This document shows, piece after piece, positions 15,455 through 26,762 of a DNA stretch of 37,479 nucleotides; positions within the stretch are counted from its first letter, which is position 1; the number at the start of each line of letters is the position of its first letter. A program made the translations under genes and the position numbers. A model generated the notes under the pieces. It was given only the letters and a program-made list of their open reading frames with translations, searched no databases and was not told the origin of the DNA. The DNA comes from a virus (lineage: Duplodnaviria; Caudoviricetes): positions 1-37,479 of IMG/VR virus record IMGVR_UViG_3300017912_000738. One strand, given 5' to 3'.

Positions 15455-15906
15455 CTAAACCAATCTCTAACGTCAATCCAATCCATATAATGCAAATAGG
15501 CTGTAGCACCGACTGCGGAGAACACCAAAAGCACAACTATTCCGACTATGGTAATCATCATTTCCTGACGTTCTATCGCGTCACGCCTCGCCTGAGCCTC
15601 TGCCTCGCGCTTTTCTGCGAGAACTTCTCTACGAATTTTTAAAAGCTCCAAGTATTTTGATCTGCCATACGTCTGCGTAATCCACTCCTTGAGTTCTTCC
15701 TCAGCCTCCGCAGCCTGACGTAGTTTAGCCCATCTATCCATAGCAGTGGCGTTTGTGCTTTTAGCAGACACGCCTTTTTGTTGCAGCGTTTTCTTGGCTG
15801 CATCGGTTGCGTCAAAAAACTTGCCAATATCTTTCGATAATGCGCTGATGGTCTTGCCGGTTTGGAGGCCTAACTTTATTCCGCTAAGAATTGTAAGAGG
15901 GTCCAT
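15451..15906 (-). CDS. Coiled-coil protein with C-terminal TM helix (lysis cassette)
   Basis: MDPLTIL start, heptad region, hydrophobic C-terminal helix. Confidence 0.7.
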   Translation of the reverse strand: MDPLTILSGIKLGLQTGKTISALSKDIGKFFDATDAAKKTLQQKGVSAKSTNATAMDRWAKLRQAAEAEEELKEWITQTYGRSKYLELLKIRREVLAEKREAEAQARRDAIERQEMMITIVGIVVLLVFSAVGATAYLHYMDWIDVRDWFR

Positions 15907-16312: not shown

Positions 16313-16355
16313 TTTCCCTTTTTTAACATACTTTAGCTTATATTGAAATAAGGGG

Positions 16356-17626: not shown

Positions 17627-17812
17627 ATGAACACGCAAAAACAGGAACGAAAGATCGGTCAGGTCGGCCCTCGAATGGAGGAGGAGCTGATCGAGCTTGC
17701 TAAGGACAAAGCCAATCGTATGGGGATTTCTCTCAATACATACTTTCGGTCGTTGGTACTCAAGGATCTGAAAAAAGATAAGGTGAAGTTCAAGCATGAT
17801 TATTGGCATTGA
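17627..17812 (+). CDS. Ribbon-helix-helix (Arc-like) DNA-binding protein
   Basis: QVGPRMEEELIELAKDKANRMGISLNTYFRSLVLKDL, AAGGAG RBS. Confidence 0.75.
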   Translation: MNTQKQERKIGQVGPRMEEELIELAKDKANRMGISLNTYFRSLVLKDLKKDKVKFKHDYWH

Positions 17813-18251
17813 TTGTGGCTACCGCACTGGCGGTGTAGGCTTTGTTAGCGACGAATGGTCAGATGTAGAGGATCTACCAGTATTCACAGAAGGCGGCGTT
17901 GACGTCGCTGTTCTTATGGATCTGATCAAAAGCGTTGGCGATGTAAAGCACATCTACATCGAGAGGCAGCAACCCATGCCGAAGCAAGGTGTCAGCTCGA
18001 CTTTCAAATTAGGTTACGCGTTTGGACAAATTATTTCTACTTGCGTCTTATCGGAGTTTCCACATACGATAGTCGCACCCTCAGCTTGGAAGAAAGCTCT
18101 GGCACTACCAAAAGATAAAGACGCAGCAAGACGTCTGGCGCAGCAATGGTATCCACATCTGACGCCACAACTACAAAGAAAAAAAGACGAACATCGGGCA
18201 GAAAGTATATTGATAGCACACTATGGAAGGACAAGGACTTGGCCAAAATAA
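17796..18251 (+). CDS. RuvC-like Holliday junction resolvase
   Basis: IIGID.G..GG, YIERQ.PMP.QGVSSTFKLG, PSAWKK, E..AESILIA. Confidence 0.85.
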   Translation: MIIGIDCGYRTGGVGFVSDEWSDVEDLPVFTEGGVDVAVLMDLIKSVGDVKHIYIERQQPMPKQGVSSTFKLGYAFGQIISTCVLSEFPHTIVAPSAWKKALALPKDKDAARRLAQQWYPHLTPQLQRKKDEHRAESILIAHYGRTRTWPK

Positions 18252-19033
18252 AAAGCATTTCAAATGCGGAGTACCACAGTAGCCCCGCATTGAGCGCTTC
18301 CGGCGGTAAGGTAATAGCTTACGAAAGCTTAGCAGATTTCAAGCATGGCGAGAGAGAAACGACGCGAGCGATGCTTCAAGGAACCGCAACACATACTTTC
18401 GTGTTCGAGCCTGATAAAGCTGACACCGTGTTGCACACCGATGCACGCGCTAACTCAAATGCATACAAGGAGCTACTAGCCGAGGCTGAGGAGGCCGGAG
18501 GCGTGCTTCTAACGACCAAAGAGTACGATGTAGCCCGTAGGTCAGCCGAAGCGGTTCGAGCTAATCCTGACGCGGCTGAGCTGCTTAGCGGAGATCTTTT
18601 AGTCGAGCAAAGTATTTTTGCACACGACGCCATTTACAATGTAGACGTGCGTATCCGTCCAGACGGATGGCGCAAGGACATAGCAACACTCCTTGACCTA
18701 AAAACGACGGTCGATCCATCACCGGAGGGTTTTGCTAAAGCTACAGCAAATTTTGCCTATCATTTTCAAGACCAGTTTTATCGGCGGGTCATGATGATAG
18801 CAGAGCAAGAGGTAGATAGATTTGTATTTATCTGCGTAGGAAAGAAAGCCCCGTTTAAAGTTGGGGTCTATGAACTTAGCAGCCAATCGCTCAGAGAGGG
18901 CGCTGCGGCTGTCGAGTATGCACTGGAGAAGTATTCCAATGCATTAAAAACTGACGTCTGGGACTATGAGTTCGGCAAAACGCAAACTGTCGAAATCCCC
19001 CGTTGGGCGTTTAAATTTACACAAGGCGAATAA
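18239..19033 (+). CDS. RecE/exonuclease VIII-like PD-(D/E)XK nuclease
   Basis: SNAEYH...LSAS, M.QGTATH...EP, RIRPD...DLKTT, YHFQ..FY. Start uncertain (TTG 18239 preferred over 18146). Confidence 0.85.
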   Translation: MAKIKSISNAEYHSSPALSASGGKVIAYESLADFKHGERETTRAMLQGTATHTFVFEPDKADTVLHTDARANSNAYKELLAEAEEAGGVLLTTKEYDVARRSAEAVRANPDAAELLSGDLLVEQSIFAHDAIYNVDVRIRPDGWRKDIATLLDLKTTVDPSPEGFAKATANFAYHFQDQFYRRVMMIAEQEVDRFVFICVGKKAPFKVGVYELSSQSLREGAAAVEYALEKYSNALKTDVWDYEFGKTQTVEIPRWAFKFTQGE

Positions 19034-23103: not shown

Positions 23104-23373
23104 ATGAATAGAGATGAGATCCTGAAAGAAGCAATGCGGATCATTAACACTGATCGAAACGCTGATTATGGAGACGCTAAAGAGAACTTCGATAATACAG
23201 CTCAATTCTGGTCGGCTTACACTGGCCACGAATACAATGCGGTCGATGTTGCAGTTATGATGATGCTTGTTAAAATATCCAGAATTAGAGTATCACCGGA
23301 TAAAGCGGATCACTTCGTTGATCTGTGTGGATACGCAAGCTTATGTGGAGAGATTAGTTCCAATGGTGGGTGA
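23104..23373 (+). CDS. DUF6378-like protein (dATP/dGTP diphosphohydrolase-like helical family)
   Basis: IL.EA..II..DR...YGD...NF...A..WS.Y...DVA.MM.L.K.SR...D..VD.CGYA. Confidence 0.75.
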   Translation: MNRDEILKEAMRIINTDRNADYGDAKENFDNTAQFWSAYTGHEYNAVDVAVMMMLVKISRIRVSPDKADHFVDLCGYASLCGEISSNGG

Positions 23374-23797
23374 AGTAGGAAAAGCTAAGATAGCTGCAAT
23401 GGAAGAAATGGGAGAGGATAAGATCCTCGAACGTGTATCAACTGGAACATCAATTAGGACTTTGATGAAAGAGTTTGATGTTGGTTACAAGCTTTTTGGT
23501 ATTTGGCTTGATAGCGCTGAAGGTAGGCGAGGTCGCTACGAAGCAGCGCAACACGAAGCCGGACATTTTTACGCTGAGCGTGCCGTTGATACGGCTCAAA
23601 ACGCTCAGCCCGAAGACGTCAATGTTTCGCGTCTCAAGGTCGATACCGATAAGTGGATGGCGTCAAAGATGAACGCAAAGTATGACACGAGACAGAGAGA
23701 CGTCGCAATCAATATCAGTGTTAACGATTTGCACGCTCAAGCGGCGCAGTTACTTGAGAATGTTATCGAAGGTGAGGCGGAAGAAGTTGAACGTTGA
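23363..23797 (+). CDS. Terminase small subunit-like protein
   Basis: HTH-like N-terminus and RLKVDTDKWMASK....Y motif, directly upstream of terL. GGAG RBS at 23347. Confidence 0.7.
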   Translation: MVGEVGKAKIAAMEEMGEDKILERVSTGTSIRTLMKEFDVGYKLFGIWLDSAEGRRGRYEAAQHEAGHFYAERAVDTAQNAQPEDVNVSRLKVDTDKWMASKMNAKYDTRQRDVAINISVNDLHAQAAQLLENVIEGEAEEVER

Positions 23798-23818
23798 TTT
23801 TACAGATCAATTCACAGT

Positions 23819-23843
23819 CGCGTGCGTGCGCGTGCGCGTGCCG
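23819..23843. repeat. GC-rich alternating purine-pyrimidine tract
   Basis: CGCGTGCGTGCGCGTGCGCGTGCCG in the terS-terL gap. Confidence 0.7.
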
Positions 23844-23917
23844 CAAAGCAGCGATTCTGTCAAGTTTTTTCGTAAATTCTTTCGCAAGTGCAGCAAAATA
23901 AGGGAAAACGGCTCAAT

Positions 23918-23945
23918 AATTAACATAATACGTATTATGCGAATC
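23918..23945 (-). other. dif-like XerC/XerD recombination site
   Basis: Minus strand GATTCGCATAA-TACGTA-TTATGTTAATT versus E. coli dif GGTGCGCATAA-TGTATA-TTATGTTAAAT. XerC arm 9/11, XerD arm 10/11, exact 11-6-11 layout, intergenic. Confidence 0.8.
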
Positions 23946-24048
23946 CGATTATTCTGCGTTGCAGCATTTGACCCCCCCCTTTTTCTAGCAAGTCGGTGCA
24001 AAAGCCAATGACCTCAAAACACACACACGCCCCCAAATGGAGAAAAAC

Positions 24049-25467
24049 ATGAACGCCCCAATAGACAACCCGTTTTTAAAATTGATGAAACGATACCGCT
24101 CCGATCCTGTTTTATTTTCCAGAGAGGTGATCGGAATAAATCCTGACGATTGGCAGTGTGAGCTGCTTCGAGCGGTAGCAGATCCAGAGATAAGACGTGT
24201 CAGTTGCAGGTCGGGCCACGGGGTCGGGAAGAGTACGGCTGTAGCTCTTGCGGCCGTGTGGCACGTTTTGATGCGGGTTCCTTCGAAGACGGTTGTAACG
24301 GCCCCTACGTCGGCTCAGCTTTTTGACGCTTGTTTTGCTGAAATGAAAAATATCGCCAAGCGCCTGAAAGCCCCTTTTGACGATTTACTGGAGATTAAAA
24401 GCGACCGCATTGAGCTGAGAAGTCAGCCAGAGACGACGTTTATTTCGTGTAGAACTTCGAGACAGGAGCAGCCGGAAGCGCTTGCGGGAGTCCATGCGGA
24501 CTCGGTGCTTTTGTTGGCTGACGAGGCGAGCGGAATTTCACCGAATATATTTGAGGCGGCAAGTGGTTCGATGTCGGGGCATAATGCGACGACCGTTTTG
24601 ACGGGCAACCCGACGCGTAATACGGGCTTTTTTTATGATACTCATAATCGGCTAAAAGATGACTGGTATACGATGCATGTGAGCTGCGTTGATAGCCCCC
24701 GCGTTGCTGACGATTTTGTCGAGGACATGAAAAAACGATATTCCGAGGATAGCCCCGCGTATCATGTTCGCGTGCTTGGAAATTTTCCTCCGTCCGAGGA
24801 GGACACTGTTATTCCTGTTGCGTTGATCGATCAGGCAATGAACAACGACATTAAGGTTCACGAGGACACACCGGCCATATGGGGGCTTGATGTGGCTCGA
24901 CAAGGCTCTGATAGCTCGGTTTTAGCGAAGCGACAGGGTCCGATTGTGCATCCGTTGACGGTTTGGCGTAACCTCGATTTGATGCAGCTCACTGGCGCTG
25001 TAAAGGCTGAATATGATGCTATAGATAATCCGGCCAAGCGACCTGTTGAGATAATCGTCGATTCAAATGGTTTTGGCGCCGGTGTGTTGGATCGATTGCG
25101 CGAGCTAGATTTACCGGCCAGAGGTTTAAATGTGTCTGAGCGTGCGCTCCAGAAGGAGACGTATTTAAATTTGCGAGCTGAGCTATGGTTTAAGATTAAG
25201 TCGTGGTTAGAGGGTATGGACGTTAAGCTGCCCAAAGATGATGCGTTGTGGGCTGAGCTTGCGGCGCCACGGTATCATTTCACAAGCTCTGGCAAGCTTC
25301 AGGTTGAGAGCAAGGAGGCAATGAAAAAGAGAGGCGTTGCCTCTCCTGATAGGGCTGATGCTGTCGCGCTGTGCTTAGCTAACGTCCACACGACAATGGC
25401 TTATGGATCGAGCGCCACAAGTTCTTGGAGTAAGCCCTTGCGACGCGAGATCCGAGGTATTGTTTAG
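24049..25467 (+). CDS. terL: Terminase large subunit
   Basis: Walker A SGHGVGKS, Walker B LLLADEA, TGNP, nuclease GLDVAR.G.D and SPDRADA. Confidence 0.95.
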   Translation: MNAPIDNPFLKLMKRYRSDPVLFSREVIGINPDDWQCELLRAVADPEIRRVSCRSGHGVGKSTAVALAAVWHVLMRVPSKTVVTAPTSAQLFDACFAEMKNIAKRLKAPFDDLLEIKSDRIELRSQPETTFISCRTSRQEQPEALAGVHADSVLLLADEASGISPNIFEAASGSMSGHNATTVLTGNPTRNTGFFYDTHNRLKDDWYTMHVSCVDSPRVADDFVEDMKKRYSEDSPAYHVRVLGNFPPSEEDTVIPVALIDQAMNNDIKVHEDTPAIWGLDVARQGSDSSVLAKRQGPIVHPLTVWRNLDLMQLTGAVKAEYDAIDNPAKRPVEIIVDSNGFGAGVLDRLRELDLPARGLNVSERALQKETYLNLRAELWFKIKSWLEGMDVKLPKDDALWAELAAPRYHFTSSGKLQVESKEAMKKRGVASPDRADAVALCLANVHTTMAYGSSATSSWSKPLRREIRGIV

Positions 25468-26762
25468 TTTTGCAGACCTTTACGCCTCCTGTCTTTCTGG
25501 ACTTGTAAAACGTATTCGTGATTGATGATCCCTAGCTCTGGGTTGCCTACCACTTTAGGCTCGATCCAGATCTTTTTGATGACTTTACCTGTTTCGTCTC
25601 GATAGCGTCTTGGGTGACCTCTTCGAGCGTGTTGGCGCTTTGGAGATCCGTGGCCGGTAAATAGTTGGCCGTATACGTTTACGCCTTTTTTCGGTAGATC
25701 GATCTCGACAACTTTGATCTCGTTGCGAGGAACTCTCCGGCCCCATCTGATAGTGCTAACCTTTTTAGGCGCCGGTAAGACTGCGCTAACGTATCGAGGA
25801 TAGTTAAGCAGCGAAAACACGGCTACTAAGAAGCGCAGATCTCCGTCCATGCCGTGACCAAAGTTTTCTTTTATTTGATATTGCTCTTCTGGGGTAAACC
25901 TTGACACATCTCCCCACATACCAAAGCCGGACTCTGACGGGTAAAATCTGAAGTTTCTTGCGAAACGTTGAAGCGTTGGCATCCCTTCGTCGTCTTTGTG
26001 GAATTTGCTGTATGCGGTTCCTAAGCCGTATAAAAAATAGTCGTCGTGTTCTTGGCTTAGTGGATTTGCGTCGTTCAGGAAGCTCCACTCGTAAGCCGGA
26101 ATACCTATTTTTGCTGTATGCTTTTTGCCAGTTTTTGTGTCTGTCCTAGCGTCGCAAACGAAATTTACATAAGAGAAGCCATTATTGACGCGCTGAACAT
26201 GGTATCCAATGCGAGACGCGCAGTTATCTCTATTTGTGTCGGCTGCCAGTCCAAGCTTAGCAAACTCCTCCTGTAGAGCGTCAAATCGAGCAAGCTCGCT
26301 CCATTCGATCCATAGATTATCGAAGCATGGTATTGCTTTGGGCATGAGCTGCGCGAGGTATCGAGGATACGAAAACGATAGGGATACAGCCATTTTTACG
26401 AAGTTGTCGCTTAGCGTGAATTTCTCGGCGCTGATAAGCTGACGCTGTAGCTGCTTGATATTGAACTCTCCCTTTTTAGTTCTTTCGTAAGATAGAAAGC
26501 TAGACGATGGTACGGATAGACCGGCGACTATTTCGTTGTAGAGCGGTATGTCGGCTTTTGTTCTATCGACAATGTATCTGTGCTGTACGTCGTCGTAGGC
26601 GTGATCGACTAGGGTTCTCTGGTTGCCGTAGCCGAACTTTGGCGTTTCGTTTCTATCGAATAAACCTTTTACGGCATCTACGTTAAAAGTCGCTTTAGTA
26701 TCTTGCTTTTTGCCATGTGCTAGTTTTCTGCCTGAAAAATTTTTAGATCTTGGCTTAGCCAT
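25464..26762 (-). CDS. Early hypothetical protein with C-terminal H-x-R-R-G-H-x-R motif
   Basis: SPKRQHARRGHPRRY...IWIEPKVVG, strong AAGGAG RBS. Last gene of a leftward early operon. Confidence 0.8.
   Translation of the reverse strand: MAKPRSKNFSGRKLAHGKKQDTKATFNVDAVKGLFDRNETPKFGYGNQRTLVDHAYDDVQHRYIVDRTKADIPLYNEIVAGLSVPSSSFLSYERTKKGEFNIKQLQRQLISAEKFTLSDNFVKMAVSLSFSYPRYLAQLMPKAIPCFDNLWIEWSELARFDALQEEFAKLGLAADTNRDNCASRIGYHVQRVNNGFSYVNFVCDARTDTKTGKKHTAKIGIPAYEWSFLNDANPLSQEHDDYFLYGLGTAYSKFHKDDEGMPTLQRFARNFRFYPSESGFGMWGDVSRFTPEEQYQIKENFGHGMDGDLRFLVAVFSLLNYPRYVSAVLPAPKKVSTIRWGRRVPRNEIKVVEIDLPKKGVNVYGQLFTGHGSPKRQHARRGHPRRYRDETGKVIKKIWIEPKVVGNPELGIINHEYVLQVQKDRRRKGLQN

Follow-up and report, generated by a model that had tools for sequence, protein, structure and literature searches.

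A dif-like site beside the terminase genes of marine tailed phages and its possible role in joining genome ends

Use of the Xer system has so far been described for chromosomes, plasmids and integrating small phages. The circularisation and concatemer formation of phages with short terminal repeats are usually put down to homologous recombination or annealing, and phage P1 cyclises its terminally redundant DNA with Cre at loxP, a phage tyrosine-recombinase site near the packaging start. The IMEXs CTXphi, VGJphi, TLCphi, a gonococcal island, enterogokushoviruses and dif-type tailless prophages insert at chromosomal dif; they are islands or filamentous, tailless or ssDNA elements (PMC5357621, PMC9226527, PMC7062461, PMC11630473). 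CTXphi and ColE1 are known to use an exchange that XerC begins and replication completes (PMC9226527).

Here we analyze a dif-like site in the IMG/VR virus record IMGVR_UViG_3300017912_000738 (Duplodnaviria; Caudoviricetes), whose full 37,479 nucleotides we call the window. In the literature searched, we found no report that places a dif site within the terminal repeat of a tailed phage or next to its terminase genes. The site studied here is conserved and, as far as these searches reach, a new form of Xer exploitation.

The window phage and its site

The window phage is a marine tailed phage, a complete SU10-like podovirus of 37 kb. A 141-bp assembly end overlap, together with the IMG/VR class “direct terminal repeats” and a completeness of 100, bears out the initial annotation, which had called the genome apparently complete. 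Comparisons with PHROGs and Pfam identified an SU10-type portal, capsid and adaptor, ejection proteins, and a primase-helicase without a DNA polymerase, while the closest cultured phages share at most 56% identity in TerL and at most 54% in the capsid protein. Upstream of terS lies a conserved 201-aa gene whose look-alikes are all unnamed. The terS start in Table 1 is an ATG chosen by hand; the ORF caller gives a TTG at 23267.

Table 1 Features of the window discussed in the text.
Feature	Coordinates	Strand	Remarks
RuvC-like Holliday-junction resolvase	17796..18251	+	PHROG 1770, E 2e-24
RecE-like exonuclease VIII	18146..19033	+	PHROG 412, PF12684
terS, small terminase	23366..23797	+	PHROG 1482, E 4.7e-16; PF20901, Sf6-type
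GC-rich alternating purine-pyrimidine repeat, terS side of module	23818..23843	+	in 51/66 relatives
dif-like site	23918..23945	minus	28 bp, 11-6-11 layout, non-coding terS-terL gap
XerD-type arm TTATGTTAATT, terS-facing	23918..23928	minus	10/11 against E. coli dif
6-bp centre TACGTA (strand-exchange region)	23929..23934	minus	
XerC-type arm GATTCGCATAA, terL-facing	23935..23945	minus	9/11 against E. coli dif
C-run at 23972-23979, followed by conserved words; predicted packaging-end element	23970..24013	+	C-run family-wide
terL, large terminase	24037..25467	+	PHROG 2 and 5902, PF03237; 48% to phiM5 TerL

We reproduced the dif-like match of the initial annotation with the same arm scores and in the same place, the non-coding gap between the terminase genes (Table 1). 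Two 11-bp arms show partial dyad symmetry about a 6-bp centre, the arrangement that marks a dif-type site; the E. coli arms used as reference were checked in an E. coli chromosome (L467) and in PMC3603311. The window contains no other dif-arm match at three or fewer mismatches, and 100 dinucleotide shuffles of the window gave no match, placing the site above chance. The core is a perfect 16-bp palindrome in the window, but near-identical relatives carry TCTGTA or TGTGTA rather than TACGTA at the centre, so the palindromic centre is incidental. The dif-like site is confirmed as real and not a chance look-alike. A promoter role was considered and set aside, with no sigma-70 match in 23300-24200. 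A second, weak arm-like match at 16321-16348 on the minus strand has a poor XerC side and is probably due to chance.

The phage appears to encode no recombinase of its own, as first annotated. A six-frame search of the window for the tyrosine integrase family PF00589 gave no match, and the same search was positive in 14 of 14 control genomes; no recombinase family, PF00239 included, was recognized among its 55 ORFs with PHROGs and Pfam. PF00589 was likewise absent from 27 IMG/VR relatives (0/7 of those at least 90% complete), with phiM5 positive in the same search, and PF00239 was found neither in the seven relatives at least 90% complete nor in phage C72C1. The 55 ORFs also include no match to a repressor or partition family.

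Two further ORFs deserve mention. Directly after terL, a 432-aa ORF on the minus strand (25464-26762) has look-alikes at 0.97-0.98 in clusters of which 41-48% of members carry PF26125 (AcrVA2-like), making it a possible anti-CRISPR-family gene; one contig in run X5 skips it. A 61-aa ORF (17627-17812, plus strand) looks by eye like a ribbon-helix-helix regulator and has no match in the PHROGs and Pfam libraries.

Conservation and host type of the arms

We compared the terminase region across relatives, defined as the best 80 of 207 loci from a TerL search; 69 are informative, and the other 11 loci do not reach the terS-terL gap. The canonical site lies directly upstream of terL in 64 of the 80, always on the strand opposite the genes, while four carry a variant XerD arm at the same place and one has lost the site. 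Positional conservation next to terL, which the initial annotation had raised as a test of its proposal, is thus borne out: the site, canonical or variant, is kept in 68 of 69 informative relatives, with one orientation in the 64 canonical cases. The exception, L057, has cleanly lost the site (about 2700-2900) while its otherwise almost identical sisters L047 and L050 keep it. Since this natural knock-out exists, the site is not essential in every lineage. One clade (L020, L021, L023 and L025) combines a divergent XerD arm with an HNH-like gene, recognized by eye, between module and terL; the divergent arm may reflect another host or a TLC-like mode. In a separate locus (L044, 3244-5139), what appears by eye to be an intein-like insertion interrupts TerL.

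Per-position conservation, computed on 39 dereplicated sites, is asymmetric. Information content is 1.60 bits in the inner XerC arm, 0.88 at the centre, and 0.24 and 0.39 bit in the flanks, with the outer four bases of the XerC arm varying across the family; the 2.0 bits of the XerD arm are circular, the scan having demanded those bases. The arms are kept and the 6-bp centre drifts: 14 different versions of the centre occur in the 39 relatives, with an invariant last base and about 0.5 bit at the inner four, and nine relatives with at least 95% TerL identity have three different centres.

The site is also found beyond the window's TerL clade. In a quick TerL tree of 59 hand-picked rows, some of them picked for carrying the site and hence not a source of frequencies, a more distant clade has the site and a run of C residues (C-run) upstream of terS. 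In nine other phages (L327, L334, L339, L379, L391, L392, L394, L400 and L404), the same dif module stands between terS and an unrelated TerL; their upstream genes resemble those of the window family, five of them via tblastn or shared ORFs. Because the pair persists both upstream of terS and beside an unrelated TerL, the site travels with the C-run and not with one gene. We estimate about 1,100 IMG/VR matches to the strict site pattern, and in 20 of 80 sampled long loci the window's TerL family lies beside the site. The canonical site is absent from the cultured capsid relatives RHph_I1_23, phiGT1, Octadecabacter DB virus 2, Venkman, three Manatee Spring genomes and phiM5. Phage C72C1 (L203, GenBank) carries the full module with a dif variant at about 15500-15600, a stretch also covered by two short ORFs annotated as “hypothetical” and perhaps spurious.

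The arms were compared with bacterial chromosomal sites. The window's XerC arm is identical to that of Rhodobacteraceae chromosomal sites L448, L454 and L458, and the same 11 bases as in its XerD arm occur in Rhodobacteraceae sites L297, L300, L305 and L452. We surveyed this family, that of bin G001, as the only one covered widely, and found sites in 35 of 151 genomes with a loose pattern and in 16 of 401 with a stricter one; the sites within one shared chromosomal neighborhood include several with exactly the window's XerC arm and others with its XerD arm. The window's own centre is absent from the 40 and 16 Rhodobacteraceae sites listed, and two centres from relatives do occur there (L305, L306). 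One relative, from freshwater and binned with Polynucleobacter, shows the arm type of its bin together with a different centre. Overall, arm types track presumed host (Rhodobacteraceae, Burkholderiaceae, Enterobacterales) and not terminase type, with arms matching the host dif for Vequintavirus against E. coli and for one bin-level pair (Polynucleobacter). A host of the window phage in the Roseobacter group is plausible. Opitutae, suggested by binning, was rejected as host: the closest MAG match (L209) is an all-phage contig. A side finding is a 12.5-kb island at L311 (G004:C11, 2208-14751), which lies between a dif-like site and a canonical dif and carries, by eye, a Xer-like recombinase and heavy-metal efflux ORFs.

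Given the positional conservation, the asymmetric arm conservation and arms that follow presumed host type, its identification as a host XerC/XerD site is well supported by sequence comparison. The initial annotation had set against its own reading the possibility that TerS or another phage protein binds the palindrome. A phage-protein site would suit the location between terS and terL and the palindromic core of the window, and a chance look-alike is the other form of this objection; however, the shuffles, the retention of the site in 68/69 relatives, a palindrome that is not conserved, arms that track presumed host rather than terminase type and survival of the site through a swap to an unrelated TerL all stand against it, and we regard it as scarcely credible.

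Genome ends and the possible partner of the site

The site sits in a non-coding block of roughly 200-300 bp that comprises, in this order, the GC repeat, an optional IHF-like word or palindromic box, the site and the C-run. A C-run of at least six within 160 nt of the XerC arm is present in all 69 of 69 loci with the site. The other elements are patchier when counted in the 66 relatives whose sequence reaches 200 nt or more beyond the site on its upstream side: an IHF-like word, scored by the IHF consensus, is found in 25/66 loci, and a 14-bp palindromic box, which presumably resembles the NrdR operator, in the terS-terL gap of 33/66 (for example, L004 at about 2740), the window not among them. 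IHF as a required accessory was rejected, the window itself having no IHF-like word.

The nearest relative with annotated ends is phiM5 (MF074189; 48% identity in TerL, 50% in MCP). According to its GenBank record, its 357-bp direct terminal repeat spans the 3′ part of terS (PHROG 2538), an IHF-like word and the C-run, and stops 34 nt past the C-run, just before terL. Transferring these offsets, we predict that the right edge of the window's terminal repeat lies near 24013, with the site inside the repeat. In the quick tree phiM5 falls outside the window's TerL clade, and it has an integrase and no dif. A second geometry is offered by Bruynoghevirus fHoPae04, whose 183-bp repeat starts with a C-run; were the C-run the left end in the window as well, the genome would have only one copy of dif, beyond the repeat. 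Ochrobactrum phage OH has no such C-run at its genome end. Logan contigs bridge the site intact, and those listed have no joint or loose end there, contigs being unable to show ends. Contigs L010, L041, L353 and L401 begin at the GC repeat, 81-113 nt ahead of the XerD arm, with other contig ends scattered, and the complete linear record G413 breaks about 50 nt past the C-run at what we take to be a library adapter. We discarded contig ends for end mapping as uninformative.

We put at about an even chance a model in which host XerCD recombines two end copies of the site to give a circularized or concatenated genome, like P1 loxP without Cre. Here a host-type dif would be kept in a conserved non-coding module that is the predicted terminal repeat of packaged DNA, with the genome ends of the window family predicted, from phiM5, to flank the site. 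XerC and XerD would bind and cut it after infection, with a second phage copy as the likely partner; the centre could then drift and depart from that of the host. XerC would start the reaction, and replication or the phage RuvC-like resolvase, which could finish an XerC-made junction, would complete it; alternatively, FtsK might activate it independently of KOPS. Dimers of the circle would be resolved at this site as well, and RecE-type homologous recombination in the repeat could serve as back-up end joining, which would explain the clean loss in L057.

In favor of end joining, the site and C-run stay together across a gene-order change and a TerL swap. Against it, we detected no activator, and the ends of the window family are represented only by contigs. 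Six-frame searches of the window for FtsK-gamma and for DUF3653, the domain we take to be that of XafT-type activators, were empty. The window has one KOPS against 1.9 expected, 14 kb from the site and none close to it; KOPS are likewise missing close to the site in G407 and G411, and show no polarity across the family.

A second reading is a cer/psi-like role with one site per circle, in which host XerCD would resolve dimers or multimers of a circular replicating or carrier-state genome and the position by the terminase genes would simply mark the one tolerated non-coding gap. Recombination of phage by phage explains the free centre equally well, and a primase-helicase without DNA polymerase is accompanied by RecE-like and RuvC-like genes that would create dimers. 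The Bruynoghevirus geometry would put dif just outside the repeat, and 11/39 relatives have an IHF-like word no more than 60 nt away on the XerD side, against 0/39 on the XerC side, as might be seen with an accessory site. However, this reading leaves unexplained why the site is kept with the C-run when gene order or TerL changes, and why Vequintavirinae hold dif inside a repeat of a far larger genome (see below), and the absence of a partition or repressor family from the 55 ORFs also counts against it; we consider it rather unlikely.

A cultured parallel to end joining comes from the Vequintavirinae. A short blastn search with the window site matched 133 phage records, 99 of them Escherichia phages and mostly rV5-like, and the rV5 site as query matched 217 records, mostly Vequintavirinae. 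In EdH4, the arms at 170-197 are exactly those of E. coli dif and fall, at either end of the genome, within an exact terminal repeat of 459 bp (458 bp in PMC6563267), and in Gotham and Hena1 dif likewise falls within the annotated terminal repeats. Vequintavirinae with dif have repeats of 459-519 bp and genomes of 136-149 kb, and the site is also carried by Vequintavirus phages of the BASEL collection. Each of the four Vequintavirinae centres seen departs from that of E. coli in its XerC-side and its XerD-side half, a mismatch that, judging from PMC5357621, should block exchange with the chromosome by either pathway. Three of 17 KOPS in EdH4 fall within 550 nt of the right repeat, and two of these point away from the site. 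The searched text of PMC6563267 and PMC8594841 does not mention a dif or Xer site, and our literature search found no relevant link between rV5 and xerC. Intergenic dif-like sites also occur in Seuratvirus WildeMaa (L322), Rheinheimera phage Barba8S (L323) and Pseudoalteromonas phage H101 (L324), and a sequence search matched 17 Rheinheimera records.

We then consider integration, the first of three uses offered in the initial annotation: as an integrase-less IMEX, the phage would be inserted by host XerCD at chromosomal dif, parting terS from terL, and excision would restore the packaging operon. The arms equal Rhodobacteraceae chromosomal arms, two relatives' centres occur among the sites of that family, and the near clade has the XerD-side GTA in common with many of them. 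On the XerC side, the centre of the relative binned with Polynucleobacter agrees with that of its bin, a match of the kind seen in VGJphi (PMC5357621), and because integrating gokushoviruses also vary in the centre (PMC7062461), centre drift is compatible with integration. The junctions that integration predicts, however, were not found. Among 118 metagenome loci with the site and C-run pattern (of an estimated 880; 21 with the window's TerL family), no phage-host junction was recognized, several flanks being 300 nt or shorter and some ORFs judged by eye; the other flank, where long enough, holds phage genes, and reverse candidates have phage on both sides. None was found in 80 of 157 genome_contigs loci either, and the family TerL is absent from 401 Rhodobacteraceae genomes, searched without a positive control. 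The integrated relatives in isolate genomes (L218, L241 and L286) are without the site, centres differ between near-identical phages, the window centre is missing from the Rhodobacteraceae sites listed, and the 55 ORFs include no repressor family.

The E. coli genomes give the same picture. With the EdH4 repeat as query, 5,274 of 5,426 genomes match, and the best-ranked matches listed cover only query positions 155-202, 46-48 bp around dif; on that basis no E. coli genome of the 5,426 holds the rV5-like phage repeat. Integration at dif is thus left unsupported, and we hold it to be improbable. Of the annotation's other suggestions, P1-like circularization is the best supported, by the phiM5 geometry and by dif within Vequintavirinae repeats.

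Finally, XerC and XerD might bind without recombining, capping the DNA end, stopping a translocase (FtsK or the packaging motor) or bending DNA for terminase cutting. The site lies in an end module beside IHF-like words and the C-run, no activator was detected, and XerCD-dif is reported to stop FtsK translocation (PMC2800217). Yet the spacing is held at exactly 6 bp and the last base of the centre never varies, which would be anticipated for a site that is cut, an argument that is partly circular since the scan required the spacing. We judge non-productive binding decidedly improbable.

Bringing the lineages together, namely the window's marine podovirus family, its freshwater kin and the rV5-like myoviruses, we propose, at a little short of an even chance, that unrelated lytic tailed-phage lineages have placed host dif with a non-host centre in their terminal repeats, and that XerCD closes or concatenates their genomes without chromosomal insertion. 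If so, these phages would use a host-supplied solution to the linear-end problem, XerCD would be a host factor of lytic infection, and the arms of the site would be a readable tag of host identity.

Comparison with known systems

A host site-specific recombinase that joins phage ends would be a new use of the Xer system. Arms following host type may help to assign hosts of uncultured marine phages, and a dif-like site alone is poor ground for calling a phage temperate. For end joining by Xer, direct tests are within reach: the layout recurs in E. coli phages that are in culture, and xerC and xerD mutants of E. coli K-12 are available (PMC7062461).

The phage site shares the 11-6-11 layout and identical or nearly identical arms with the chromosomal dif/XerC/XerD/FtsK system (PMC5357621), but it stands on a tailed phage beside terminase genes, with no KOPS nearby and a centre that varies among near-identical genomes. 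The window phage resembles the IMEXs in being mobile, in carrying a dif-like site and in having no recombinase gene that we could find; unlike them, it has yielded no integrated copy. Nor does it follow the TLCphi type, which pairs a strongly degenerate XerD arm with XafT: 64 of 68 sites have a canonical XerD arm, and DUF3653 is absent. With cer (ColE1) and psi (pSC101), it would share self-by-self use of host XerCD on extrachromosomal DNA (PMC5357621). However, the centre of cer measures 8 bp and its accessory DNA for PepA/ArgR extends over about 180 bp (PMC5357621), whereas the phage site has 6 bp, its flanks carry 0.24-0.39 bit, and the only accessory-like signal of the window family is the patchy IHF-like word on the XerD side.

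Parallels also lie among phages. phiM5 has a related TerL, portal and capsid and the same order of terS, IHF-like word, C-run and terL, but it encodes an integrase and a DNA polymerase and lacks a dif-like site. As with P1 loxP, the window site would be a target of tyrosine recombinases, placed near the packaging start and expected at either end of the virion DNA; unlike P1, the window phage has no recombinase of its own and would borrow two host enzymes, and the arms are asymmetric. Position within the virion's terminal redundancy is seen in EdH4, Gotham and Hena1, while for the window the phiM5 geometry speaks for it and that of Bruynoghevirus against it. The Vequintavirinae are unrelated 136-149-kb myoviruses with annotated ends and a repeat that is not beside terS-terL, yet they share with the window phage host-type arms, a non-host centre and a location in a non-coding end region.
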